Source: an uncultured bacterium (GTDB lineage Bacteria > Acidobacteriota > Vicinamibacteria > Vicinamibacterales > UBA8438). From it: a stretch of DNA of 64,000 bases. The notes below the pieces were generated by a model, which had not been told where the DNA came from, ran no database searches, and was given only the letters and a program-made list of their open reading frames with translations. Where the stretch lies: positions 15,815-79,814 of the forward strand of contig CAWWAF010000001.1 in assembly GCA_963934795.1 (NCBI GenBank). Direction: 5' to 3'. The translations under genes were made by a program, and so were the position numbers. Of this stretch, positions 3,028 through 60,506 are shown in pieces (positions within the stretch are counted from its first letter, which is position 1; every line of letters begins with the position of its first letter).

Positions 3028-3360
3028 TTAGACCATGTCCTTGAGCTTTTTCAGCGGAAGCACTTTCACCCGGGTGCTCGCGGGCTTCGCCTTCACGTCC
3101 ATGAGTTCGCCGGGCCGAAACGGGTTCGGCACGTTCTTCTTGGCTCTTTGGGCCGGCTTCTTGATCGTCTTGATCTTCAGCAGACCAGGGACCGTGCACG
3201 AACCAACAGAGCCCTTCGCTATGTGTCGCGCGATAATGCCTTCGAGCGCCACGAGGACGGACCCAACCTGCTTCTTGGTCAGCTCAGTACTCTCGGCAAT
3301 GTCCGCGAGCATCTGGGTCTTGGTCATCGCCGCCACGAGCTTCTTTGCCTTTGCCAACAT
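3028..3360 (-). CDS. HU/IHF-family DNA-binding protein with a short Lys/Ala-rich N-terminal extension.
   Basis: Contains MTKTQMLADIAESTELTKKQVGSVLVALEGIIARHIAKG...VPGLLKIKTIKKPA...RNPFTGE-like arm (NPFRPGE). AGGAGG lies directly upstream, so the exact start is uncertain by a few codons (3360, 3357 or 3327). Confidence 0.85.
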   Translation of the reverse strand: MLAKAKKLVAAMTKTQMLADIAESTELTKKQVGSVLVALEGIIARHIAKGSVGSCTVPGLLKIKTIKKPAQRAKKNVPNPFRPGELMDVKAKPASTRVKVLPLKKLKDMV

Positions 3361-3674
3361 CTCCTCCTAAGGGTTGCATGACACGAGAATTCTGCGTCAG
3401 AAGGACCACTGCCCACCGAGCGCAAGGCCCACTGTACACCGTCCCGCTCTTGCCAGCTAGTCTCCATTCAGCGTGTATGCCTACTGCGCTCGCGCCCGAT
3501 CATCCTGACCGACACGTTCTCTCAGCTCAGGCGAGCGGCGGACATTCACGCTAGCCGCGTCGGGAGGTCCTGATCAACACTTGACCGTTCGTCGAAGAGG
3601 ACCGGGTGACTTGCCTGCGCCTGTCGCGGTCCCGCACAAGCGATGAGCCCCGTCACCTCCACGCCATCGCACCG

Positions 3675-5282
<1,608 letters not shown>

Positions 5283-21252: not shown

Positions 21253-23700
21253 TTGTTCTCGACTGTGTCTTCGACTGCCCGTGCTCTCGCTCTTCTGTTG
21301 GGCGCGGTGCTGCTCACGCCGGCATCCACCACAGCCCAACCGCCGTCCAGCGTGACGGGCCAGGTCATCGATGGTGTCACTGAGGCGCCGTTGGAGGACG
21401 CGCGTGTCGAAGGCGCCACCGACACGGTCGTCACCGAGTCTGGCGGTCGTTTCTCCATCGACGTAGGAGCGGCCGAGACCACCTTGCGGGTTCGGGCGAC
21501 CGGCTACCTGGACACGGTCGTGCCCGTCGACAGCCTAGAGCTGGTCATTCGGTTGTTTCCCAACAGGTTCGCAGAGACCGTCGAGGTGGTCTCTGCACCC
21601 GATGCGCAGGAGCGGCCCTCGTCGACACCGGTGAGTCCAGCCGAGGTCTTTCGCGCCCCCGGGAGTATCGACAATGTCTTTCGGACGCTCAACACCCTCC
21701 CGGGGGTCGCCTCCACGGACGACTTCGGTAGCCGGCTCGCGGTACGCGGCGGCACCCCGGACCAGAACTTGACGGTGATGGACGGCATCGAGGTGCACAA
21801 TCCGTATCGCCTCTTCGGCATTGCCAGCGCATTCAACCCAGAAACCGTCGAAGGTTTTCAACTCAGCGCCGGCGGCTTTGGGGCTGCTTACGGCGACCGG
21901 CTGTCGTCGCTGCTGATCGTCGAGAACCGTCCGGGGCGTCCGACATTCGCGGGGGCCGGATCGGCGAGTGTGACGGACGCCAACGTCGTGCTGGAAGGAG
22001 CCACGCCGGGCGGACACAACGGCACCTGGCTTGTCAGCGCCCGCCGCACCTACTACGACCTCGTCGCGGGGCGCCTGCAAGATCAGAATTTTCCATCGTT
22101 CGCGGACCTCCAACTGCGGGCGGGCTGGGAGTTTGGGCCGGGCCACCGTCTGACCCTGACCGGACTTCGCAGCGTGGAGGACGCCGACCTGGACATAGAC
22201 GGCGACCGGGACGACGAGCGGGCGGCGCTCGGGTCAGACGTGACGAACGGGCTTGCCTCGGCCCGGTTGGACGCGGTGCTCGGGGCGCGCGCCACGTCGA
22301 CGACCATCGTGTCCTGGTATCGCAACCGGGAGCAGCTCAACTTCGACGGCCTCGTGCGCGCGGACGCGAGACGTTCGAATGCACCGGACAACGATGTCGC
22401 GTTCGAGCTCAGCACGATTCTGTTCGACCGCTCGCTCGATATCGGCGACGTCTCAGCCCGGCAAGAGCTTGGCGTACAGGTGTCTCCCCGTCATCTGCTC
22501 GGCGCCGGCATCGAGGTGCACCGCCTTGATACGCGCGTTGGATTCACCCTCAGGGGCGACAGGAACGACACGCAGGCCAACGGATCGAGCATTCAGGGCG
22601 GCGCCGGACTCCCGGACGACCTGCAGTCTGCACTCCGCGGGACTCGCGGCGGCCTCTGGCTCAAGGACACGTACACGCCGTCATCCCGCGTGTCGTTCGA
22701 ACCGGGCCTGCGTCTGGACTGGAGCACCATCAACGGCGACATGGCACTGTCCCCCCGGATCGCGCTGAGCTACGCCCTGGGCCGCGGCGCCCGTGTGCGC
22801 GCCGCGGGCGGGTTATACACGCAGAGCCCCGGCTACGAGAAGCTCACACAGTCGGACTACTTCATCGACCTGTCCGGGGCCCATGACGGTGGTCTGCTCC
22901 ACGAGAAAGCCACGCACGTCGTGGTTGGCCTGGAGCAGGCGCTGGGTCGGGACCTGACTGCGCGGATCGAGGGCTACTATAAGGGTTTCAATGATCTACT
23001 CTTGGGCCGCCTCGAGAACGAGTCTGAACGACTCGAGCGAGTGTCTCAGTACGATTTTCCGGAGCCCTTGCGCGACGACGTGCCCACGGCGCCGCTGATT
23101 TTGAGCGCCCCGACGAACGACGCCGGTGGCATCGCCTACGGCCTGGACCTGTTCTTCAGCCACAGCAACGACGCGGCGCCACTCACCGGATGGCTCTCGT
23201 ACGCCTGGGGACGGGCCACGCGCGAGAGTTACGGTCGACGGTACGCCTTCGAGTACGACCGCCGCCACGCATTCAACGCGGTCGGCCGATACCGGCTCAC
23301 CCGTCGGTGGGACGTGGCCACGACGTTCCGCGTCGCCAGCGGCTTTCCGCACACCGCGCCACTCGGGGTCCGGGTTTCGGCGGTCGAGGACGACCGGGGC
23401 CGGCTCGTGCCAGGGACCGACTCTGTCGGGAATTTGATCTACACCGTGGACTACGGCGGCCTCGACAACCTGAACGCGGCCAGACTGCCCCACTATGCCC
23501 GAGTCGATGTCCGGGGAACCTATCGGAGAGGCCGCTGGTCGTTCTACGTTGAGGTGCTCAATCTGTTGGGTCGAGACAACGCGGTTGTCCTGGAGCCACG
23601 ACTCCGACACAACCCGGACGCGGCCCTGCCGCAGGTCTTTGAGACGGCGTCTCAAGGGTTCCCGCGCATACCGACATTCGGGCTGCGCGCACGCTTCTGA
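21253..23700 (+). CDS. TonB-dependent receptor with an N-terminal carboxypeptidase-regulatory-like domain.
   Basis: 815 aa. Signal peptide, then VTGQVIDGVTEAPLEDARVE. Plug region (PGVASTDDFGSRLAVRGGTPDQNLTVMDGIEVHNPYR). Ends in a beta-barrel terminal ..GLRARF. Confidence 0.9.
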   Translation: MFSTVSSTARALALLLGAVLLTPASTTAQPPSSVTGQVIDGVTEAPLEDARVEGATDTVVTESGGRFSIDVGAAETTLRVRATGYLDTVVPVDSLELVIRLFPNRFAETVEVVSAPDAQERPSSTPVSPAEVFRAPGSIDNVFRTLNTLPGVASTDDFGSRLAVRGGTPDQNLTVMDGIEVHNPYRLFGIASAFNPETVEGFQLSAGGFGAAYGDRLSSLLIVENRPGRPTFAGAGSASVTDANVVLEGATPGGHNGTWLVSARRTYYDLVAGRLQDQNFPSFADLQLRAGWEFGPGHRLTLTGLRSVEDADLDIDGDRDDERAALGSDVTNGLASARLDAVLGARATSTTIVSWYRNREQLNFDGLVRADARRSNAPDNDVAFELSTILFDRSLDIGDVSARQELGVQVSPRHLLGAGIEVHRLDTRVGFTLRGDRNDTQANGSSIQGGAGLPDDLQSALRGTRGGLWLKDTYTPSSRVSFEPGLRLDWSTINGDMALSPRIALSYALGRGARVRAAGGLYTQSPGYEKLTQSDYFIDLSGAHDGGLLHEKATHVVVGLEQALGRDLTARIEGYYKGFNDLLLGRLENESERLERVSQYDFPEPLRDDVPTAPLILSAPTNDAGGIAYGLDLFFSHSNDAAPLTGWLSYAWGRATRESYGRRYAFEYDRRHAFNAVGRYRLTRRWDVATTFRVASGFPHTAPLGVRVSAVEDDRGRLVPGTDSVGNLIYTVDYGGLDNLNAARLPHYARVDVRGTYRRGRWSFYVEVLNLLGRDNAVVLEPRLRHNPDAALPQVFETASQGFPRIPTFGLRARF
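23640..23654. promoter_or_regulatory. Candidate distal operator site TGAGACGGCGTCTCA, a perfect palindrome, inside the 3' end of the TonB-receptor CDS.
   Basis: Same TGAGAC-N3-GTCTCA pattern as the site at 23798..23812. Lies about 100 nt upstream of the predicted feo -35 element. Confidence 0.35.
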
Positions 23701-23755
23701 AAAGAGGTCGCCGTCGACCAGCTCCGAGAGCCCTTCTCGTGACGTCCCGGACCTG

Positions 23756-23783
23756 TTGACCGACCAAATTGGCGCGATATAAA
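23756..23783 (+). promoter_or_regulatory. Predicted sigma70-type promoter of feoAB (TTGACC-N16-TATAAA).
   Basis: TTGACC at 23756..23761 and TATAAA at 23778..23783, in a locally AT-rich stretch. The -35 context TTGACCGACCAAATTGG resembles TTGACGACCAAAGTGG in the promoter at 60456..60484. Confidence 0.45.
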
Positions 23784-23797
23784 ATGAGCTCCGAAAC

Positions 23798-23812
23798 TGA
23801 GACTGAGTCTCA
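23798..23812. promoter_or_regulatory. Palindromic operator TGAGACTGAGTCTCA just downstream of the predicted feoAB -10 element.
   Basis: Perfect inverted repeat TGAGAC/GTCTCA, 14 nt after the -10 and 22 to 37 nt before the feoAB start. Related sites lie at 23640, 60428 and 60492. Confidence 0.55.
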
Positions 23813-23848
23813 CTTCTTGGATCCGCACGGTGGGTGGCCTCGCCACCG

Positions 23849-26383
23849 ATGCGAGGAGCATTTCGCCCCGTGCATCAGGGTCTCCGCACGCTCGACCAGC
23901 TTCCGATTGGCACCCACGCGGTGGTCCACCACGTGGGGTGCGACCGCCCCGTCGCGCGCCGCCTCATGGAAATGGGGCTGCTGCCAGGCACCGCCATCGA
24001 AACGGTCCGCCGCGCGCCACTTGGCGATCCGCTTGAGATTCGTCTCCGCGGCTATCTGCTCTCACTGCGACTCGCCGACGCCGCACTGATCCAGCTGATT
24101 CCTGAGGGCCGAGCGGATCTCGTTGATGAGGTCGATGCAACCGATCGCGACCAGCTCTTGCAGTTTGGCGCCTACCCAAGCAAACCCAGGGCCGCGACCG
24201 ACCGGGTCCAGACGGTGCTCCTGGCGGGGAATGCCAACTCCGGCAAGACCACAATCTTCAATGCGCTGACCGGCGCCCGGGCCCAGGTCAGCAACTATCC
24301 AGGGGTCACCGTGACCCGCTCATCCCGACGCATCACCCTGCCAGAAGGCTCGCCGGTCGAAGTGGTGGACCTGCCCGGCACCTACAGTTTGAGCGCGAAT
24401 TCACCCGACGAGCAGGTGGCGGCCGACGAGGTGCTCGGGCGTCGAGGCGACCCGCCTGACGCCGTCGTGGTGGTGGTTGACGCCGGCGCGGTCGAACGCG
24501 GCCTCTACCTGGTGCTCCAAATCGTCGAAACGGGGGTACCCGTCGTCGTCGCCCTCAATATGATCGACGAGGCGAGCGCCGGGGGTACCGACTTCGACAC
24601 GAAGCGACTGGGCCAGTGGCTCGGGGCCACTGTTGTCCCGACCGTCGCCTCGCGAGGCCGCGGCCTGGAGGAGTTGCGCGAGGCCATCGACGCCACTCTC
24701 ACGCGCGGCCCAAGGACCGACTCGTCCAGGCCGGGATTGCCTGCCGACGCGGAACAGGACGTAGCCGCGGTGACCAAGGCGCTGGCCGACGCCAACTTTG
24801 GCCAGACCCCGGCGGTGCAACGCGCGTGGGCGGTGTGGTCGCTGTTGTCGTTGGAGCACGACGACGACGCCTCGGGGCTTCCCGAGCCGGTTCGCCGCCA
24901 GGTGCAGGCGATCCAAGACCGTGCGACACAGACACAGCGCAATCTCCACCAGGAACTCATTACCGCCCGTTACCGGTGGATTGAGACGGTGGCGGCCGAC
25001 GTTCGCACACAAGCGCGCGAAGATACGCGACAGTGGACCGAACGACTCGATGGGATCCTCATCCACCGTTTCTACGGCGTGGCGGCCTTCGCTGTGGTCA
25101 TGGCGGTACTGTTCGAAGCCTTGTTCAGCTGGTCTGAGCCTTTCATCGGCGCCATCGAGGGCGCGACCGGCTGGCTGCAAACCATGGTGGCCACAAGCCT
25201 TCCGCCGGGGGTATTGAACGACCTCTTGATTGACGGCGTCATCGCGGGTGTCGGCAATGTGGTGGTGTTCGTGCCGCAGATCGCGATGCTGTTTTTCTTC
25301 ATCGCGCTGCTCGAAGATCTGGGCTATCTGGCCCGCGTCGCTTTCGTCATCGATCGGCTGATGGGACGGGTCGGTCTGCATGGCAAGGCGTTCGTGCCGA
25401 TGTTGTCCGGGTTCGCATGCGCGATCCCTGCGGTCATGGCGACACGCACGATCGAGAGCCGGCGAGACCGATTGATCACGATGCTGACGCTGCCGATGGT
25501 CTCCTGCAGCGCGCGACTCCCGGTCTACGCCCTGGTGACCGCCGTCGTGTTCGCGGGTGAGCCCCGCGTCTTTGGCTTGCTCAGCGTCGGGGCGCTCGTC
25601 CTATTTTCCATGTACACGCTCTCGGTCGTCGCCACCTTGGGCGCGGCGGCCGTCCTCCGGCGCACCGTGCTCACGGGCCCGCGGCTGCCGTTGGTGCTCG
25701 AACTCCCCCCCTATCGGGTACCGGTGTGGCGGAACGTCGCGCTGGTCACGTGGCGACGCGTGCGCAAGTTCCTCGAAGACGCCGGCACGATCATCCTCAC
25801 GATGACGATAATTCTGTGGGCGCTTCTCTCATTCCCGCACAGCGCGGAGATCGATACCCTGCATGACGCGTCGCGCGCGCAGGTGCTGGCGACGACGCCT
25901 GCGGCCGACCAGGAGGCCGCGCTGGCCGAGCTCGATGGCCGCCTCGCCAGCGACCAGCTACGCTACAGCGTGGGGGGCCGAATGGGCCGCCTTATCGAAC
26001 CGGTGCTCGAGCCACTGGGCTTCGACTGGCGAATCGGCGTGGGCATTCTCGGCGCATTCGCGGCCCGAGAGGTGTTTGTCTCGACCCTCGGCATCGTCTT
26101 CGGCATCGAAGCGGCGGACGAAGAAAGCGTCAGCCTGCGATCATCGCTACAAAACGCGACCCGTGTCGACGGATCCCCCTTGATGACCCCGCTGGCCGGT
26201 GTGTCTCTGATGGTGTTCTTTGTCCTCGCTTGCCAGTGCATGAGCACCATCGTAGTTGTGCGCAAGGAGGCGGGGGGCTGGGGCTGGCCTGTCTTCATGT
26301 TTAGCTATATGTCGGTGCTCGCCTACGTCGCCTCACTCGCGGTGTATCAAATTGGCTCCCTCATGGGATGGGGGACCGCATGA
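23849..26383 (+). CDS. feoB: Ferrous iron transporter: FeoA domain fused to FeoB.
   Basis: The N-terminal 80 to 90 aa match FeoA (LDQLPIGTHAVVHHVG...ARRLMEMGLLPGTAIETVRRAPLGDPLEIRLRGYLLSLR). Next comes the FeoB G-domain (VLLAGNANSGKTTIFNALTG...NYPGVTV...VVDLPGTYSL) and then a polytopic membrane domain. The ORF opens at 23834; ATG 23849 is preferred. Confidence 0.9.
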   Translation: MRGAFRPVHQGLRTLDQLPIGTHAVVHHVGCDRPVARRLMEMGLLPGTAIETVRRAPLGDPLEIRLRGYLLSLRLADAALIQLIPEGRADLVDEVDATDRDQLLQFGAYPSKPRAATDRVQTVLLAGNANSGKTTIFNALTGARAQVSNYPGVTVTRSSRRITLPEGSPVEVVDLPGTYSLSANSPDEQVAADEVLGRRGDPPDAVVVVVDAGAVERGLYLVLQIVETGVPVVVALNMIDEASAGGTDFDTKRLGQWLGATVVPTVASRGRGLEELREAIDATLTRGPRTDSSRPGLPADAEQDVAAVTKALADANFGQTPAVQRAWAVWSLLSLEHDDDASGLPEPVRRQVQAIQDRATQTQRNLHQELITARYRWIETVAADVRTQAREDTRQWTERLDGILIHRFYGVAAFAVVMAVLFEALFSWSEPFIGAIEGATGWLQTMVATSLPPGVLNDLLIDGVIAGVGNVVVFVPQIAMLFFFIALLEDLGYLARVAFVIDRLMGRVGLHGKAFVPMLSGFACAIPAVMATRTIESRRDRLITMLTLPMVSCSARLPVYALVTAVVFAGEPRVFGLLSVGALVLFSMYTLSVVATLGAAAVLRRTVLTGPRLPLVLELPPYRVPVWRNVALVTWRRVRKFLEDAGTIILTMTIILWALLSFPHSAEIDTLHDASRAQVLATTPAADQEAALAELDGRLASDQLRYSVGGRMGRLIEPVLEPLGFDWRIGVGILGAFAAREVFVSTLGIVFGIEAADEESVSLRSSLQNATRVDGSPLMTPLAGVSLMVFFVLACQCMSTIVVVRKEAGGWGWPVFMFSYMSVLAYVASLAVYQIGSLMGWGTA

Positions 26384-52755: not shown

Positions 52756-54099
52756 CTACAGATCCGCTAGTCGCCCCGTACTGTCCGACACACGGTCGAC
52801 ACGTGCGCCCACCTTGTCGAGCAGGCTCACCCCCAAGTTCATGAACGGGGTGTCGAGCTCGTATTGCAGATGGCGTCCGCCGACGAGCTGTCCGTTGCCA
52901 CCACCAACCAGCGTGACGGGCAGGTTGTAGGGCGTGTGATGATCGCCATCCCCCATGCCCGTGCCATACAGCAGAATCGTGTGGTCGAGCAGCGTGCCGT
53001 CGCCGTCCGGCGTGTTGTGCATTTTCTCGACCATCTGTGCGAAGAGCGACATCTGGTGCGTGTTGATCTTCGTGTACTGCTCGATATTGTGCGGATCGAG
53101 TTGATGGTGCGACACGCTGTGGTGTGCCTCGGGCACGCCAATCTTCGGGTAGGTGCGCCCGCTCAGCTCGCGAGCCATCTGGGTGCAACTCACCCGGGTG
53201 ACGTCTGCCTGGTAGGCCAGCACCAGCATGTCGAACAGCAACAACACATGTTCGTCGTACTCTTCGGGCACGCCGCCTGGCTGCTCGACCGCGGGCAAAG
53301 GTGTCGCCGCATTGCCCTGCTCGGCCCGCTGAATCCGCCGTTCGATCTCCCGCACGGCGTCGAGATATTCCTCGACCGACGATCGGTCCCGCAGACCCAA
53401 GCGACGCTCGAGACGGGCAATACTCTCGGTCACGGAGTCGAGAATGCTGCGGTCGGTCTGCATCTGCGCCAGACGCGCTTCCATGCTGCCGCCATCGCCG
53501 AACAGACGCTGAAACACCACGCGCGGATCACGCTCGTGCGGTAGTGGCGTGGTCGCGGTGCGCCAGGACGTCGAATTCTGATAGGTGCAGCTGTAGCCGT
53601 TCTCGCAGTTCCCTACCGTGAAGTTCGATTCAGTCGTCAGCTCAAGCGACCGCAGCGAGGTGTCGGCACCCAGCGTGTCGGCGGCGTACTGGTCAATGGT
53701 CTTGCCGGCCTCGATATCCGCGCCTTCCGTCCGTTTGGGAAGCACACCGCTCAGCCAACCCCCGTGGGCGCGGGTGTGTACCCCGCCGCCTTCATTCGTG
53801 CTCACGAGACCACGGTTGCTCAGACCGCTCACCACCACCAACTGATCACGGTAGGGCTCGAGCGGCTTGAGAATCGGAGACATCTCGAAATCCCGCCCTC
53901 CGCCGCCGGCCGGGTGGAAGTTCGGCAGGAACATGCCGTTGGGCGCATACACGAACCCGAGCCGTGGAATGGGGTTCGCCGCGGTGCGCGCCGTGGCCGT
54001 CAGTGCGGGCGCCATGGCGTCGAGGAACGGCAGGGCGACGGTGGCACCGATGCCTCTGAGCACGGTCCGGCGCGGCAGCGCCTTCTTGGTGACAATCAT
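52756..54099 (-). CDS. DUF1552 domain protein with a Tat-like signal; module copy 2.
   Basis: Contains MIVTKKALPRRTVLRGIGATVALPFLDAM and HHSVSHH. The start overlaps the upstream stop by 4 nt. Confidence 0.9.
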   Translation of the reverse strand: MIVTKKALPRRTVLRGIGATVALPFLDAMAPALTATARTAANPIPRLGFVYAPNGMFLPNFHPAGGGGRDFEMSPILKPLEPYRDQLVVVSGLSNRGLVSTNEGGGVHTRAHGGWLSGVLPKRTEGADIEAGKTIDQYAADTLGADTSLRSLELTTESNFTVGNCENGYSCTYQNSTSWRTATTPLPHERDPRVVFQRLFGDGGSMEARLAQMQTDRSILDSVTESIARLERRLGLRDRSSVEEYLDAVREIERRIQRAEQGNAATPLPAVEQPGGVPEEYDEHVLLLFDMLVLAYQADVTRVSCTQMARELSGRTYPKIGVPEAHHSVSHHQLDPHNIEQYTKINTHQMSLFAQMVEKMHNTPDGDGTLLDHTILLYGTGMGDGDHHTPYNLPVTLVGGGNGQLVGGRHLQYELDTPFMNLGVSLLDKVGARVDRVSDSTGRLADL

Positions 54100-56555
54100 G
54101 ACTCGCTTCTCCTGTGCAAGAACGGATAGCTGTTCACGATGCCGATCACGATGGCATGCATCCCGTGGTCGTCCTCCGACGCCTCACGCACGATGCGCCG
54201 CACCGCCGGCATGTCGTAGTAGTCCAGGCCGCGGCCCAACGCATAGGTCAGCAGCTTCTCGGTCACGGTCGTGGCGAAACGATCGGGGCGCTCAACGAGC
54301 GCCGCCCGCAGTTCGGCCACGCCATCGAACGCCGTCCCATCCGGCAACACTCCGGATGTGTCCAGCACGTTGAACGACTCGTCCACCACGCGCGAGCGAC
54401 CGATGGCGTCGAACCGCTCCAGCGCGAATCCGGCCGGATCGATCATCGAATGACAGGCGGCGCAGGCGGGATTCGCCCTATGCGCCGACATCCGCTCGCG
54501 CATCGTCGCCACTTTGGCCTGGGTCTTCTTGTCGTTCAGCGCAGGAATCCCTGGCGGCGGATCGGGAGGTGGGGTGCCCAGAATGTTGTTGAGAATCCAC
54601 TTCCCACGGAGCACCGGCGAGGTTCGGATGGCGTGCGACGTCAGGGTCAGGATGCTGCCGTGACCCAGCAAACCACCACGAGCGCTGTCGGCCGGCAGGG
54701 CAACCCGGCGAAAGTGGCTGCCCTGCACGTTGGGAATGTCGTAGTGGTCGGCGAGGCGCTCGTTGAGGAACGTGTAGTCGGCCGTCAACAGATCGAATAC
54801 CCCACGATCCTCACGGACGACACTGTCGAAGAACAACTCGGTTTCGCGCAGCATGGCCTGGCGCAGGGTCTCGTCGAACGCCAGCGCATACGGGTCACCC
54901 GGCCGAACCACCTGCTCGAGGTTGCGAAGCTGCAACCACTGTCCGGCAAAGTTACGCGTGACAGACTCCGACCGAGCATCCGCAATCATCCGACGTGTCT
55001 GTTGCTCAAGAACCGCCGGGTCGCTCAGTGCGCCGCGCTCGGCCAACGAGAGCAGCTCGTCGTCAGGGATGCTGCTCCAGAGGAAGAAGGAAAGCCGGGA
55101 GGCCAGCTCGAGGTCGGTCACTTGATAGGACGCGCCCGGGGGCGAGTCTGCCGGGTCTCCTTCGATGCGCAGGAGGAATTCGGGGCTCACCAGCAGGCGC
55201 CGTAGCCCCATTTCGATACCCGCTTCGAAAGTGGCCCCGTCGCCACGACCCATCTCGTAGAAGCGGAGCAGTACATCGAGATCGGTACCGGACACCGGCG
55301 CCCGATAGGCGCGTCGCGCCAGCGTCGACAAGATGGTTCGCGCGCAGGCTAGCTCGTCAGCCGGAGTGGCCGGACGGCAGGAAAAAATGCGGTCACGGCT
55401 CGGCGTCTGCCCCGGCCCTCTGGCGTCGTGCGGCCCGGAGATACTCACGGTGCTGACGAATGGCAGGCTCCCACCCGGACCACCAGCGTTCCCGGACGTG
55501 CGGGGATTCTGGAAACGCTCTCGAACCTGTTCGACCAGCACCGGAGGATTCCGCGAAAAGGCCAGGGCCAGCTCGTGCCGCCCGGCACCGACGGGCACGC
55601 GCAAGTCGAGCCTGCCACCGGTGAGATACGGATTCGGCTCGCCCTCGCTGGGCGCGGGCCCCAACGTGTAGTGTTCGACCGGCTCCCCATCCAGGGTCAC
55701 CTCCAGCCGATGTTCTTCGCGCAGTCCTCGGTTGCCGTTCAATTGAACATGAACGTCATAGGCGGCATCGAGCGGAAAGAGATAGTCAACCAGCATTCCA
55801 CCCCGGGTGCCGAACGGCAGGCCTTGTGCGCGTTGATGCTGCTGCTCGTCCTGCGCCGCACGAAACGTCTCGGATACCACCCCCGGCGGTGGACTACCGA
55901 CGGCCAGCCGGCTAATCGATCGACTTGCGGCCAGATACCGCTCCAGCAGCGACTGCGACATCCGCAGCACGCCGCCGATGTTGTCGAAACCGAAACTCGC
56001 GTCGTCGGCCGGCAGCAGGTCGTCAACATCAACCTCAAGCGCCAGCAGATCCCGAACGGCATTGCGGTACTCGGTGCGGTTCAACCGGTGTAGAGCCACG
56101 GTTCGGCCGGGGTCCGGTGCCGCCATCCAGTTGCTGTCCAGTTGCGCTTCCAGCCACGACCGGAACCCGTCCAGCGTGGCCTCATCCGGCCGTGGGCGCC
56201 CGGCGGGCGGCATCAGCCCCGCGCGGAGCTTGCGTACCACCTGTTCCCAATGCTGTGCCGCATCGCCAACGCGGGACAGGTCGAGCGTATCGAGGCTCAG
56301 CCCGACCGCGCGCAGCTGAGACACCATGGGCGTGCGAGGAGCGTCGGTGCCGTCCACCACCGCCTCGCTGTGGCAGGTGACGCAGTACTGATCCAGCATC
56401 GCGGCGTAGGCGTTCACAGGCTCGTCGGCGGCCGTCGGCTGGGCTGCCGCCGCGCCGCCATACAGCAAGGCGGCAGTCAGCAAAGCCGCCGCGACCGCCC
56501 GGGCGCCGTGGATGCTTGTCAATTGCACTCCAGAAACGTCAACAGTGCTTTCCAT
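54096..56555 (-). CDS. DUF1592/DUF1595/DUF1587/DUF1588/DUF1585-family protein with two CxxCH motifs; module copy 2.
   Basis: 819 aa. Contains YCVTCHS near the N-terminus and CAACHSMIDPAGFALERFD near the C-terminus. Collinear with 10096..12660. Confidence 0.9.
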   Translation of the reverse strand: MESTVDVSGVQLTSIHGARAVAAALLTAALLYGGAAAAQPTAADEPVNAYAAMLDQYCVTCHSEAVVDGTDAPRTPMVSQLRAVGLSLDTLDLSRVGDAAQHWEQVVRKLRAGLMPPAGRPRPDEATLDGFRSWLEAQLDSNWMAAPDPGRTVALHRLNRTEYRNAVRDLLALEVDVDDLLPADDASFGFDNIGGVLRMSQSLLERYLAASRSISRLAVGSPPPGVVSETFRAAQDEQQHQRAQGLPFGTRGGMLVDYLFPLDAAYDVHVQLNGNRGLREEHRLEVTLDGEPVEHYTLGPAPSEGEPNPYLTGGRLDLRVPVGAGRHELALAFSRNPPVLVEQVRERFQNPRTSGNAGGPGGSLPFVSTVSISGPHDARGPGQTPSRDRIFSCRPATPADELACARTILSTLARRAYRAPVSGTDLDVLLRFYEMGRGDGATFEAGIEMGLRRLLVSPEFLLRIEGDPADSPPGASYQVTDLELASRLSFFLWSSIPDDELLSLAERGALSDPAVLEQQTRRMIADARSESVTRNFAGQWLQLRNLEQVVRPGDPYALAFDETLRQAMLRETELFFDSVVREDRGVFDLLTADYTFLNERLADHYDIPNVQGSHFRRVALPADSARGGLLGHGSILTLTSHAIRTSPVLRGKWILNNILGTPPPDPPPGIPALNDKKTQAKVATMRERMSAHRANPACAACHSMIDPAGFALERFDAIGRSRVVDESFNVLDTSGVLPDGTAFDGVAELRAALVERPDRFATTVTEKLLTYALGRGLDYYDMPAVRRIVREASEDDHGMHAIVIGIVNSYPFLHRRSES

Positions 56556-56640: not shown

Positions 56641-57711
56641 CTAGTTAGGGCCGCGTTGGACGGGCATCCCGAGCCGGTCGTTGACCTGTTCGGTGGCCCG
56701 TGGAAACCGACGCTCAAACGCCACGGTGGCGCGGGCCGTCAGACCATTGCCGGTGGCCTCGGTGGACGGCGCCAGAAAGAGCGCGGCCAAATCGCGGGCC
56801 TCGGCGAAGTGCACCCCGTCTTCGGGCCCCAGAACATACAGCGCCGTCGACAGCAGGTCCGCGACGAGGGGGTCCTGGTGCCAGACTGTCACTGATTCCG
56901 GGCGGTAGAGCGCGTCGCCCGATCGCGGATCCAGGATATGGGCGATTCGTTCACCGTCCACGCTGAAAGAGCGTTCCGATGCTCCGCTGGTAGCGAGCGA
57001 CCCCTCGATCAGCACAATGTCCATGGCAGGCTGGCTCCTGCGGGCCGGATCGGCAATGGCAAACGGCCAGCCCTCGGAATGTCTCGTGGCCGCCGACACA
57101 GCGACCTGACCGCCGAGATCTACCCACCACGGGAAATTGCTCTCGCCGTCGGCTTGCAAACGGCGCAAAGCCTCGCCCTTCCCGAAAGCCCCGGCATCGA
57201 GCGTGACGTCTGCCAGCCGCGTCACCCGGCACGCTCCTGTTTCGGAGTTAAACGCGAAGTGGTGAAATCCAGACACCGCGCGCGCTGTTAGAAGTTCGGC
57301 CTCGGATGGGCGTCGCCCCCCGTCCCGTAGCCCCCAGGCCTCGATCAGGGCACCCACGGCTGGGTCGAAAGCGCCGTCTGTTTCCACATGCCACCGGGTC
57401 AATATTGCCCAGAGCGCGCAGACGTCCTGCCCGACCTCAAACGGGTCGCCCACGGGTTGACGATTGAGGCGGCCGAGCTCGGTGTTCTCACGCCACGTGC
57501 TGAGCGTGGCCTCGCTCTGCTCCAGGCGCCGAACCATGCGGTCTAGCTGATTCAGCGCGGCGACCCGGTCCGGCGCGTGGACCGCGAGCGTCGCGCGCGT
57601 CCCCATCAGGTAAAGCGTGCGCTCGACTTCAACCGGACCGGCAGCCAGGAGCGAATACAGGAGCAATGGAGAGAGCGTGCCGAGCGCGACGAGGCTCGGC
57701 ACGCGGCTCAC
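56641..57711 (-). CDS. apbE: FAD:protein FMN transferase (ApbE family).
   Basis: 356 aa. Contains LMGTRATL, DGAFDPAVG, LDAGAFGKGEA, VDLGGQV and LATSGASERSF. Confidence 0.9.
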   Translation of the reverse strand: MSRVPSLVALGTLSPLLLYSLLAAGPVEVERTLYLMGTRATLAVHAPDRVAALNQLDRMVRRLEQSEATLSTWRENTELGRLNRQPVGDPFEVGQDVCALWAILTRWHVETDGAFDPAVGALIEAWGLRDGGRRPSEAELLTARAVSGFHHFAFNSETGACRVTRLADVTLDAGAFGKGEALRRLQADGESNFPWWVDLGGQVAVSAATRHSEGWPFAIADPARRSQPAMDIVLIEGSLATSGASERSFSVDGERIAHILDPRSGDALYRPESVTVWHQDPLVADLLSTALYVLGPEDGVHFAEARDLAALFLAPSTEATGNGLTARATVAFERRFPRATEQVNDRLGMPVQRGPN

Positions 57712-58184
57712 GCCGAGATGCCGACCTTGCTGGGAAACATGCTGGTGGAGTCTGACGACGCTCGACCAAGACGCCAGCTGATGAAGAGGTGCGCGCTGTA
57801 GCCGACGACGAACATGACACTGGTCGACACATGGGCCCAGACCATGGCCGTCACGAATTCAGGTGTCGATGCCACCTGCAGCAAGTAGCCGGACAGGGCC
57901 ATTGCCGAAAAACTAAGCAGTGACATCCAACCGGACCGCCGGTTCCTTGCACTCGGCGAGATGAGCTTCTTCAATGTGTGCGAACGAAACACCATGCCGA
58001 AAAAGGCAATGAAGACCGGCGCGGCAAGCAGATGCAGGGAGAGCATGGCCGGCTGCCACGGATGATTGATGACCGCGAACGGGTCAACCGCGGTCACGGC
58101 GTACTTCATGTAGAAATACGCGAGGCCGGTCACGGTCACGACGCCGTGCAAACCATTGAACGCCCACTGTTCCCACCACTTCAT
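57708..58184 (-). CDS. Small 4-TM membrane protein with intramembrane histidines (possible b-type heme carrier).
   Basis: 158 aa. His residues sit in predicted TM1 (NGLHGV), TM2 (LSLHLL) and TM4 (WAHVS, YSAHLF). It has 4-nt overlaps with both neighbouring genes. Confidence 0.7.
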   Translation of the reverse strand: MKWWEQWAFNGLHGVVTVTGLAYFYMKYAVTAVDPFAVINHPWQPAMLSLHLLAAPVFIAFFGMVFRSHTLKKLISPSARNRRSGWMSLLSFSAMALSGYLLQVASTPEFVTAMVWAHVSTSVMFVVGYSAHLFISWRLGRASSDSTSMFPSKVGISA

Positions 58185-58744
58185 CGGGCTACCGCTCCAC
58201 CTTCTTCTCGGCCGCGTTCCAACACCTGGTCCATCGCCAACACCCGTCGCACAGCGGCGTTTGCCGCACCCGTCGTCAGCGTGCCGCCGAGAATGGGCTG
58301 TATCGCCCGCTGCACGGCCAGATCGTCGGTCAGAAGCTGTTTGTAGTACTGCTGCAACCAGTTCTGCGCCGGTTGATACTCGGGCGGCTCCTGAAAGGCC
58401 GTCACTTCGATCCGCTTCACGCTACCGTCAGGCTCGAGTGAAATCAGCAAGCTCTCCATTTTGGTTCGGACGACGTGGGTGTCGATGTAGGCGCGTCCCA
58501 CGGTCCGTCCACCCTGCGTCGCGACGTAGCGAGCCACGAGCGCGCTTCTCACCTCGCCCCCCGCCAGCTCGCCGATCCGAACCATCTGCTGCTCGGTCAA
58601 GAACACGCGTTCCGCTTCAATCCCCGCGTGCGGAAACACGGCGGCCAGAGCCTCCTCCCGAGTCATCTGGCCGCCCTGGGCAACTACGACCACCGTGGTC
58701 GTCACAAGCATCAACGACGCGCACATTAAGGCCACTCGGATCAT
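58181..58744 (-). CDS. Exported FMN-binding domain protein, a likely ApbE flavinylation substrate.
   Basis: 187 aa with a signal/anchor (ALMCASLMLVTTTVVVVA). FMN_bind-like core. ILGGTLTTGAAN resembles the [S/T]GA[T/S] flavinylation motif. Confidence 0.75.
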   Translation of the reverse strand: MIRVALMCASLMLVTTTVVVVAQGGQMTREEALAAVFPHAGIEAERVFLTEQQMVRIGELAGGEVRSALVARYVATQGGRTVGRAYIDTHVVRTKMESLLISLEPDGSVKRIEVTAFQEPPEYQPAQNWLQQYYKQLLTDDLAVQRAIQPILGGTLTTGAANAAVRRVLAMDQVLERGREEGGAVAR

Positions 58745-58756
58745 GCCAACCTCGCC

Positions 58757-60235
58757 CTAGAAGGCGTACCCCATGCTCACGTTGAACTGGTTGACGCCGG
58801 TCTCTGCGTCGTTGCTGACCCAGGCGTGGTCCACCTTCACTACGATTTGGGAAATTGGCTTCAACTCAATACCCACCGTAAGAAACGTGTTATCTGTCGA
58901 GAGGCTGCGGGACAGGCCGTCCGGCACTCGGTCCTGAGTATCCACCTGCTCGTAGCGAACATACGGCGTCAGCGCGACTCCAGCGGAATCCGTCTGCGAG
59001 AGCACGTTGTAACCCACTTGAATGTAGGCCCCCTGCATCCGTTCACCAACACCGTTACCGAGCAGCTGATTAAGCTGAGCCGCGTCGTCGAGGTGGGCCC
59101 TGGCGAAAAGCCCCCGCACGTCCAGTCCGCGCACTTGCGCGGCACCATGCAGGTCGAAAATGGTCGTTCGAACGCCATACTCAGCGCCATCAACCACCAC
59201 CTGACCCTGTCCTGAATCACCGGTATACAAGCTAGCTCCCACAAACACTCCGGGGGTCGGCGTAACGTCGACGCGTCCGGTGAACGCCATACTCGTGGCC
59301 TTGGCCTTGTTGCCTTTCTGGCGGCCGCCGCGTACCCCCTTCGAGGAAAAGTCGAGACCGTCAAATCCGTTCATGACATAGGCCCGGAACGACACGCGGT
59401 CGAACGCTCCGTATATGCCGGCTCCATTTTCTCGCCACGTCGACGGGATAATCCGTTGTTCGGTCACCGGACGCTCGGCACCGAGGAAGACGGTCGGCTC
59501 ATGGAACTCGTTGACCAGTCCCATGGGCGCCAGCAACATACCGCCGCGCACCCCCATGTTGTCAGTCGCCTGGTAGTCCAGGTATGCGAACTCCACGTAA
59601 ATCTCATCGGCGTGCTCAATCTCGATTTCCGAGTTGAACAGAAACTTGTCGTTGAAGCGGTACCCCGCGTAGATGATGGCGCGAAGAAAATCGGCCTTGG
59701 TCGTTTGCCCTGTTGCGGCCCCGCCTTCGTTCTCGTCTGCGTAATTTTCGAAGAGCATCTCACCATACCCGGCAATGGAGACCCCTTGACCTCGGCTGTA
59801 GGTGGACGCCGCCGACGGAGCGAGTCCCAACCGGCGGGCATCGTCCACACTGACCGGCTGTACCCCTTCTCCTTCTCCACTACGGAGGCGCTCGACCTCA
59901 TCGGCCAACAGGTCAACACGGCGCTGTAACTCCTCAACATCCGATGGTTGCTGCTCCGTTTCGGCAGCGCCGCACGCAGCGGGTGCAATATCCACCTCAA
60001 CCTCGGCCGATGTGCGCTCGGTGACCTCTTCGGAAGCGCCGACTGGAGCTCCGTCCGTGTTGCCGACAATGCCGCACGTAGCGGGTGCGATATCCGCCTC
60101 AGTCTCGGCCGATGTGGGCTCGGTGACCTCTCTAATCTGCGTTTGCGCGGTCGCGCTCGTGGCGAGGGCGCACAGCGCCAACGCCGGAATCATCTGATTG
60201 CGCCAGAAATAGCCCTGGTGTGTCTTTGTCGTCAA
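58757..60235 (-). CDS. Outer-membrane beta-barrel porin (porin O/P-like) with an N-terminal repeat and a coiled-coil segment.
   Basis: Signal peptide MIPALALCALATSATAQ. Coiled-coil ELQRRVDLLADEVERLR. Alternating beta-strand pattern ending in ..NVSMGYAF. Start is either TTG 60235 or ATG 60193. Confidence 0.8.
   Translation of the reverse strand: MTTKTHQGYFWRNQMIPALALCALATSATAQTQIREVTEPTSAETEADIAPATCGIVGNTDGAPVGASEEVTERTSAEVEVDIAPAACGAAETEQQPSDVEELQRRVDLLADEVERLRSGEGEGVQPVSVDDARRLGLAPSAASTYSRGQGVSIAGYGEMLFENYADENEGGAATGQTTKADFLRAIIYAGYRFNDKFLFNSEIEIEHADEIYVEFAYLDYQATDNMGVRGGMLLAPMGLVNEFHEPTVFLGAERPVTEQRIIPSTWRENGAGIYGAFDRVSFRAYVMNGFDGLDFSSKGVRGGRQKGNKAKATSMAFTGRVDVTPTPGVFVGASLYTGDSGQGQVVVDGAEYGVRTTIFDLHGAAQVRGLDVRGLFARAHLDDAAQLNQLLGNGVGERMQGAYIQVGYNVLSQTDSAGVALTPYVRYEQVDTQDRVPDGLSRSLSTDNTFLTVGIELKPISQIVVKVDHAWVSNDAETGVNQFNVSMGYAF
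59969..60131. repeat. Two copies of a 61-nt direct repeat (period 102 nt) inside the porin gene.
   Basis: 59969..60029 and 60071..60131 align with few mismatches (gccgcacg[c/t]agcgggtgc[a/g]atatcc[a/g]cctca..ctcggccgatgtg.gctcggtgacctct). They encode VTE[P/R]TSAE[T/V]E[A/V]DIAPA[T/A]CG twice. Confidence 0.75.
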
Positions 60236-60427
60236 GGGTTTGTCTCTCGGTTGCGGTTGCGCGCCCTGACGATCATCTCTACAATAAGCACCACTGATGT
60301 CATCAGCTCACGCGACCTGGTTCCAAACTGCGTCTTAAGGGAAGCGGCGAGTGACCGCTCAGTTGGCCCGCCGGGTGTGACAGCACCCGCGGGCCATTTT
60401 TGCTACACACTCAAACTGAATCAATAA

Positions 60428-60442
60428 TGAGACTCGATCTCA
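60428..60442. promoter_or_regulatory. Operator site TGAGACTCGATCTCA, just downstream of the predicted -10 of the porin operon.
   Basis: Inverted repeat TGAGA-N5-TCTCA. Read on the minus strand, it starts 13 nt after the TATAGT -10. This is the same relative position as the feoAB site. Confidence 0.55.
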
Positions 60443-60455
60443 ATTTGATATCGCA

Positions 60456-60484
60456 ACTATATATCCGACCACTTTGGTCGTCAA
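60456..60484 (-). promoter_or_regulatory. Predicted sigma70-type promoter of the porin/FMN/4-TM/apbE operon (TTGACG-N17-TATAGT on the minus strand).
   Basis: On the forward strand, cgtcaa lies at 60479..60484 and actata at 60456..60461. This is the most AT-rich stretch in the window. The -35 context matches the feoAB promoter. Confidence 0.45.
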
Positions 60485-60491
60485 TAGAAAA

Positions 60492-60506
60492 TGAGACTGG
60501 ATCTCA
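60492..60506. promoter_or_regulatory. Operator site TGAGACTGGATCTCA, immediately upstream of the predicted -35.
   Basis: Second copy, 64 nt from the first. Both copies are preceded by tcaata..aatgagact. Confidence 0.5.

Follow-up and report, generated by a model that had tools for sequence, protein, structure and literature searches.

What is the function of a perfect palindrome that stands between the promoter and the coding sequence of feoAB, the ferrous-iron transporter gene, in an uncultured member of the Vicinamibacterales (Acidobacteriota)? The question arises from a 64,000-nt stretch of contig CAWWAF010000001.1 (assembly GCA_963934795.1; hereafter the window, G+C 64.8 %), whose FeoAB protein is 65–86 % identical to proteins from metagenome-assembled genomes (MAGs) of the same order. 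An initial annotation of this DNA had listed four palindromes of related form and had suggested that they may be the lineage-specific box of an iron-responsive repressor. The comparison with relatives described below indicates that the box is probably the double-stranded DNA operator of a dimeric regulator encoded elsewhere, where the position of the sites would imply repression and the nature of the target genes would imply Fe2+ or an Fe-S cluster as the signal. The box is real and lineage-wide on iron-uptake promoters, its consensus has no earlier description, and the core interpretation holds well; searches of the literature found neither the motif nor an acidobacterial Fur box.

Occurrence and conservation of the box

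The exact palindrome TGAGACNNNGTCTCA occurs exactly twice in the window, at 23640 and 23798 (0.00 copies expected), and the pattern TGAGA-N5-TCTCA (TGAGANNNNNTCTCA) occurs four times, with the additional copies at 60428 and 60492. Against an expectation of 0.01 copies, and with none of 100 shuffles getting to four, the presence of all four palindromes above chance, as first reported, is borne out. Sites with two mismatches are absent from the window, and sites with three mismatches are at chance level (19 vs 28 expected). A position-weight matrix of 23 nt, built from 95 unique sites and used with a listing threshold of 6 bits, gives 32–37 bits to the boxes at 23798 (34.1), 60428 (37.0), and 60492. 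The best scores in the window are those of the boxes at 60428 and 60492, which had been described as a looser form; they are instead full-strength sites that flank a promoter on the minus strand. The boxes at 23798, 60428, and 60492 would clearly be functional, and their coordinates are given with those of the other features in Table 1.

Table 1. Predicted features of the window (window positions; strand + or −).
Feature	Position	Strand	Description
feoAB promoter	23756..23785	+	−35 TTGACC 23756-23761, 18-nt spacer, −10 TAAAAT 23780-23785; scan match 10/12
Predicted primary feoAB operator box	23798..23812	+	TGAGACTGAGTCTCA; 12 nt 3' of −10; ~+7..+21 of the predicted transcript start
Core-only palindrome	23640..23654	.	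TGAGACGGCGTCTCA; 3' end of TonB-receptor gene; doubtful auxiliary site
Fused feoA-feoB gene (Fe2+ transporter)	23870..26383	+	Pfam FeoA, FeoB_N, Gate, FeoB_C
Porin-operon promoter	60456..60484	−	−35 TTGACG 60484-60479, 17-nt spacer, −10 TATAGT 60461-60456; 10/12
Predicted upstream porin-operon operator	60492..60506	−	minus strand reads TGAGATCCAGTCTCA; ends 7 nt before −35; centre ~−50
Predicted downstream porin-operon operator	60428..60442	−	minus strand reads TGAGATCGAGTCTCA; 13 nt after −10; 64 bp centre-to-centre from upstream box
Four-gene operon, predicted to be regulated	56641..60235	−	porin-like, FMN-binding-like, four-transmembrane, ApbE
Porin-like outer-membrane protein	58757-60235	−	492 aa, beta-barrel; no Pfam domain
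FMN-binding-like secreted protein	58181-58744	−	187 aa
Four-transmembrane His-rich membrane protein	57708-58184	−	158 aa
ApbE flavin transferase	56641-57711	−
Putative antisense sRNA gene in porin leader	60257..60401	+	promoter TTGCGC-17-TACAAT 60257-60285; ~110-nt transcript
aa, amino acids; FMN, flavin mononucleotide; sRNA, small RNA.

The set of relatives comprised 166 loci (designated by L numbers), with 80 feoAB loci of ~10 kb each and 80 metagenomic porin loci (779 kb), and ~1.7 Mb of DNA was scanned with the matrix. The box is carried by feoAB in ~50 relatives, by an operon for a porin, a flavoprotein, and ApbE in ~60, and by a gene for a P19-type protein in one genome, which agrees with its proposed lineage-wide use on near-consensus promoters of iron uptake. 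The matrix scan detected degenerate sites at these same promoters only, and no copy lay outside iron-related promoters. When the feoAB and porin sets are combined, 91 non-redundant promoter modules have the same composition, namely a −35 hexamer TTGACC/G, a spacer of 17–18 nt, a −10 hexamer TAGACT/TATAGT, and then the box, with a gap of 12–14 nt between the −10 and the box in 79 of them. The wider consensus is AAAyTGAGAYYSRRTCTCAyTTT, and the Y7/R9 centre is kept in 186 of 190 half-sites. The operator would accordingly be composed of the core TGAGAYY-S-RRTCTCA and A/T-rich flanks, ~21–23 bp in total. A census of half-site spacings in the porin loci gave 103 sites with N5, one each with N4 and N6, and 0–2 for each of the others between N1 and N10. 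Boxes with N4 spacing are represented by TGAGATTGATCTCA and TGAGACCAGTCGCA (the downstream box of L081 at 3817-3830 and the upstream box of L083).

Two further contexts extend this distribution. In L084, two additional boxes share the region between a small membrane-protein operon and the divergently oriented P19-type iron-transport gene (PF10634): the box on the P19 side follows a TAGAAT −10 by 10 nt, and the other follows a TATACT −10 by 16 nt. In two MAGs of the Phycisphaerae (Planctomycetota), perfect palindromes TGCGACTNAGTCGCA (L068, 3746-3762; L069, ~1418) are found upstream of feoAB, 6–7 nt before a TTGACC/TTGACT −35, which is the geometry of the upstream box of the porin promoters. 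Immediately 5' of this variant box in L068 is a HU/IHF-like gene (3344-3673). Where feoAB and porin boxes of the same genome could be compared (L015/L081, L019/L083, and L063/L084), no clear co-variation of the variants was observed.

The feoAB promoter

In the window, feoAB is preceded by the gene of a TonB-dependent receptor (21253-23700). The promoter had been read as TTGACC-N16-TATAAA; the −35 hexamer at 23756 stands, and for the −10 the promoter scan and the alignment with the TTGACC-17/18-TAGACT of relatives favour TAAAAT at spacer 18 over the alternative TATAAA at spacer 16. The start of feoAB is probably the GTG at 23870 and not the codon at 23834, because leaderless relatives run TAGACT-6 nt-GTGCACCAGGG and their protein starts with VHQGL. 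The exact pattern is present in 30 of the 80 feoAB loci, with one copy in each, and is absent elsewhere in these loci; 29 of the copies are located no more than 100 nt 5' of feoAB, and the one in L038 falls within the matched coding sequence, 11 nt from its start. When mismatches are allowed, 53 feoAB loci, including the window, have the box in the same place, 12–14 nt after the −10 TAGACT. All 53 have TGAGA as the left half without variation; the right half differs between clades (TCTCA, TTTCA, or TCGCA), and these differences are never compensated on the left. Upstream of feoAB in L024, a tandem local duplication of the −10 plus box was also noted.

The porin operon and its two-box promoter

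The boxes at 60428 and 60492 bracket the promoter of a four-gene operon in an A/T-rich intergenic region, and an equivalent of this promoter is conserved in all porin loci. TGAGA-N5-TCTCA sites number 103 in the porin loci, all but one just 5' of the porin gene. Dual boxes are present in 30 non-redundant porin promoters, of which the pair in the window is typical: the upstream box ends 6–8 nt before the −35, the downstream box begins ~13 nt after the −10, and the centres are 62–66 bp apart (mode 64). In 29 further non-redundant porin promoters the downstream box stands alone. The sequence preferences of the upstream box, which is not transcribed, equal those of the transcribed box. A local duplication of the −35 and the spacer palindrome (see below) was seen upstream of the porin gene in L132.

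The porin family has 3982 homologues, none of which is named, and is without a match in Pfam or NCBIfam. Searches of PDB sequences and NCBIfam gave no match for the two small operon proteins; a flavinylation-type motif (GAT-L-T) was read by eye in a close homologue of the 187-aa protein. Three Vicinamibacterales chromosomes (L081, L083, and L084) preserve the gene order porin, ~185-aa protein, ~185-aa protein, and ApbE. ApbE-linked extracytosolic flavoprotein systems have been connected with the reduction and assimilation of iron (PMC8238504), and the operon, which carries no annotation as such, is a candidate for an extracytosolic ferric-reductase or iron-uptake system. Directly 3' of ApbE (54096-56555, minus strand) lies the gene for a protein of 819 aa that contains a CxxCH haem motif and for which Pfam and NCBIfam gave no match at the thresholds used.

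A probable DNA operator and its alternatives

The features expected of the operator of a homodimeric repressor, which are dyad symmetry, fixed spacing, and overlap with the RNA-polymerase footprint, are all present. The binder would be a symmetric dimer or a dimer of dimers whose gene lies elsewhere in the genome. At feoAB, a protein bound from +7 to +21 would keep the open complex from forming or the polymerase from leaving the promoter, which would make it a repressor. At the porin promoter, the second operator at ~−50 would lie in the A/T-rich UP-element zone, ~six helical turns from the first, and the bracketed promoter could be controlled by cooperative binding or a short loop. Such a system would repress in iron-replete cells and de-repress under iron limitation; we infer repression from the position of the sites and iron from the target genes, and iron would be the likeliest signal because all targets (FeoAB, P19, and the ApbE flavoprotein system) serve the acquisition of ferrous iron.

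The same box could in principle work as RNA, in the form of a 5'-terminal stem-loop of the feoAB and porin mRNAs that would affect mRNA stability or translation or be bound by an RNA-binding protein. The evidence argues strongly that DNA would be the active form: a second box lies upstream of the −35 and thus outside the transcript in 30 porin promoters and in the Phycisphaerae feoAB promoters, the stem is constant in sequence and the loop varies freely, which is the reverse of usual RNA-protein recognition, the right-half changes TTTCA and TCGCA are uncompensated on the left (of the 19 loci of the GTCGCA clade, 16 have an uncompensated A3/G13 mismatch), covariation is absent from the RNAalifold result (covariation term −0.14), the hairpin is weak at just −4.8 to −6 kcal/mol, and the half-site spacing is essentially fixed, with 103 N5 sites against one each for N4 and N6. 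A structured RNA would also be expected to show compensatory changes, transcription of all copies, and an Rfam family, and none of these was observed; Rfam returned nothing meaningful for the whole window at gathering score or for both leaders at E-value thresholds. On the side of an RNA element, the A-rich and U-rich flanks allow a longer stem (11 bp in L084), one N4 variant retains the stem and alters the loop, and further conserved hairpins are present in both leaders. The N4 box of L081 had been considered as evidence for an RNA hairpin and was dropped after the spacing census (N5 103 vs N4 1). An RNA element in place of the DNA operator is considered quite improbable, and an added role of the transcribed copy at the RNA level would be secondary.

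Several observations weigh against the reading of the box as an iron-responsive DNA operator. The promoter-proximal copy always falls at ~+7..+22 of the predicted transcript, and the commonest substitutions (C6 to T and C12 to T) are wobble-compatible in the sense RNA, both of which would suit an RNA element. Certain clades have a leaderless feoAB without the box (TAGACT, 6 nt, GTG; Vicinamibacterales L025, L028, L029, L030, and L066), rare N4-spaced variants exist in L081 and L083, the box is absent from the own promoter of the TonB-dependent receptor that adjoins feoAB, and the regulator gene was not found in the window or the 166 loci. The unboxed receptor would also be in keeping with the main rival to iron, which is a DNA operator whose signal is oxygen or redox state or, alternatively, another metal (Mn or Zn). 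The targets all concern Fe(II) and not siderophore or Fe(III) uptake, and such uptake and extracytosolic reduction matter mainly at low oxygen. In other bacteria, oxygen sensors share in the control of feo operons. In addition, a palindrome CCGACCA-N3-TGGTCGG in the −35/−10 spacer of 54 of the 91 boxed promoters (feoAB and porin) implies that at least one more factor takes part. A signal other than iron is nevertheless judged unlikely, as P19 and FeoAB are iron-specific transporters, the format of the box is that of metal- and Fe-S-sensing families, and the position at +7..+21 suits a classical metal-loaded repressor. Finally, the boxes could be chance palindromes or remnants of a mobile or repetitive element that carries a promoter, similar to repetitive extragenic palindromic (REP) sequences or miniature inverted-repeat transposable elements (MITEs), given that each box is palindromic, that the dual-box module of ~80 bp is bounded by identical inverted repeats, and that L024 and L132 have local duplications of promoter modules. 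Such an origin is extremely improbable, given that ~1.7 Mb contains no copy beyond three or four promoter contexts related to iron, that the position relative to the −35/−10 is fixed, that the chance expectation is 0.01 per window, and that the box is conserved throughout an order and, in variant form, in a second phylum.

Known operator families and the regulator

The consensus of the Fur box in its 7-1-7 form is GATAATGATAATCATTATC or TGATAAT-N-ATTATCA. Like the Fur box, the operator proposed here is an odd palindrome of 15 bp with a TG...CA frame and A/T-rich flanks, and it is placed on iron-uptake promoters including feoAB in a repressor-type position. It matches the Fur consensus at 10 of 14 specified positions (T1 G2 A3 A5 T7 / A9 T11 T13 C14 A15), whereas the symmetric positions 4, 6, 10, and 12 deviate (G4, C/T6, G/A10, and C12) and give the core GAGAC/GTCTC. 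The box is also discrete, with copies 64 bp apart on the porin promoter, in contrast to the overlapping arrays of Fur. The location of the box on iron-acquisition promoters (feoAB, P19, and the porin operon) is therefore that of a Fur box and its sequence is not. This is in line with the earlier description of a Fur- or Rrf2-like format that matches neither consensus.

The format TGA-N9-TCA or TG-N11-CA is common to the Fur, RirA, Iron-Rhodo, and IscR boxes (Rodionov et al., PMC1698941). All sites fit the TGA-N9-TCA that the Rrf2-family boxes of alpha-proteobacteria (RirA, Iron-Rhodo, and IscR) display upstream of iron genes, and these boxes are likewise lineage-specific substitutes of the Fur box that were discovered by comparative genomics (PMC1698941, PMC4618611). 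The differences are that RirA is confined to the Rhizobiales and the Iron-Rhodo-box to the Rhodobacteraceae, whereas the host here is an acidobacterium; that the RirA-box is defined mainly by its outer triplets, whereas the inner GAGAY is invariant here; and that RirA and Iron-Rhodo sites mostly overlap the −35/−10, whereas the box here is at +7..+21 and −50. With a host in the Vicinamibacterales and no IscR-like match in the window or the loci, a RirA orthologue is not indicated.

Resemblances outside these families were also recorded. The Zur box of delta-proteobacteria is ATGCAAC-N3-GTTGCAT, and its targets are genes of zinc uptake. The 6-3-6 layout TGnnAC-N3-GTnnCA is the same, and the Phycisphaerae variant TGCGAC-N3-GTCGCA differs from the Zur box at one position per half-site, which may serve as a lead for membership of the Fur family and not as a test of it. 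At the gal promoter, the operators OE and OI bracket the promoter and form a 113-bp loop. The porin operators resemble this arrangement in that they flank the RNA-polymerase footprint on the same helical face (62–66 bp, ~6 turns), and differ in that a loop would be much shorter than 113 bp; the two sites may act independently, with one blocking the UP-element zone and the other promoter escape.

The regulator itself was sought with tblastn, in which Fur, Zur, and IscR of E. coli, PerR of B. subtilis, and IdeR of M. tuberculosis gave no match in the window and the 166 loci. Among 39 open reading frames (ORFs) of the window searched against Pfam and NCBIfam, the only DNA-binding domain was that of a HU-like protein (3028-3366); the small unannotated ORFs mostly resemble non-coding frames. 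Clustering of neighbours across the loci yielded no transcription factor and, by eye, an HD-domain protein, a CopC-like protein, and a FeoB-associated Cys-rich peptide. Assignment to the Fur family is the leading possibility and falls a little short of an even chance, membership of the Rrf2 family is unlikely, and a regulator of another family is tentatively entertained as a less probable option than Fur. It is conceivable, though rather doubtful, that a new regulator (non-Fur, or a Fur or Rrf2 paralogue with new specificity) common to the Vicinamibacterales and Phycisphaerae controls a dedicated Fe(II) regulon of FeoAB and the ferric-reductase-like porin/flavinylated-protein/ApbE system, with a cis-antisense sRNA and a spacer operator as extra layers.

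The palindrome in the TonB-receptor gene

The fourth palindrome of the window, at 23640, had been counted with the others, and its exact match stands; its standing as an operator does not follow. The site matches just the 12 core positions, its centre is GGC with G7/C9 instead of Y7/R9, and its flanks are G/C where real sites have A/T. Its score lies below the 6-bit threshold (~5.6 bits by hand calculation), and in L003, the sole relative with the same TonB-receptor gene (83 % identity), AEVPS is encoded in place of FETAS and the site is absent. In favour of the site, the chance of an exact 12/12 match is ~0.002 per window by base-composition calculation. The palindrome extends to TTGAGAC-GGC-GTCTCAA, uses three codons that end in A or T (TTT, TCT, and CAA) within a gene whose third-position G+C (GC3) is 0.80, and lies 158 bp (~15 helical turns) upstream of the feoAB box. 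Its role as an auxiliary site is doubtful.

Further elements of the boxed promoters

The porin leader of 213 nt contains a putative antisense sRNA gene on the opposite strand, which ends in a terminator made of a GC hairpin (60365-60395) followed by TTTTT. In 18 non-redundant homologues, the promoter hexamers and their spacing are kept and the spacer sequence drifts. RNAalifold gives 23 pairs with 7 compensatory changes, and the G-U pairs fit the sRNA strand only; no Rfam family matches the unit at 60257-60401. A porin transcript from the box promoter must read antisense through this unit.

The spacer palindrome introduced above is probably the site of a second factor. An intact copy lies at 60466-60480 (CGACCAAAGTGGTCG) and a degenerate one in the feoAB promoter of the window (23760-23776), and the P19 promoter of L084 has none. 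The geometry of the palindrome is reminiscent of MerR-type sites, but the spacer here is 17–18 nt.

Both types of leader carry other hairpins. A GC-rich hairpin GGCCCGCSGGGTG-N6-CACCCGSCGGGCC lies 30–55 nt after the box in the porin leaders of L081–L108 and ~45 nt after the box in the P19 leader of L084 (1814-1845), and is found nowhere else in the fetched DNA. In the 5' untranslated region of feoAB, a hairpin CGGTGG...CCACCG (23828-23848, plus strand) is located just 5' of the Shine-Dalgarno sequence, and relatives have versions of it, such as CCATGG...CCATGG and CCCTGG...CCAGTGG, that look compensatory by eye. It was not recovered by RNAalifold, probably due to misalignment, and is known from inspection.

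Implications for iron acquisition in the Vicinamibacterales

Palindromic operators are expected on iron-uptake promoters, and no principle is overturned by their occurrence here. The porin promoter, with its two proposed operators and the putative antisense sRNA gene embedded in its leader, would be a compact system in which to study the layered control of metal uptake. The operator also offers a way to assign a role in iron acquisition to a very large, uncharacterised porin family (3982 homologues) and to the flavoprotein and ApbE that accompany it. Soils and the deep ocean are rich in Vicinamibacterales, which are almost unstudied genetically, and the operator can be used to rebuild the iron regulon in hundreds of MAGs and to trace its regulator.

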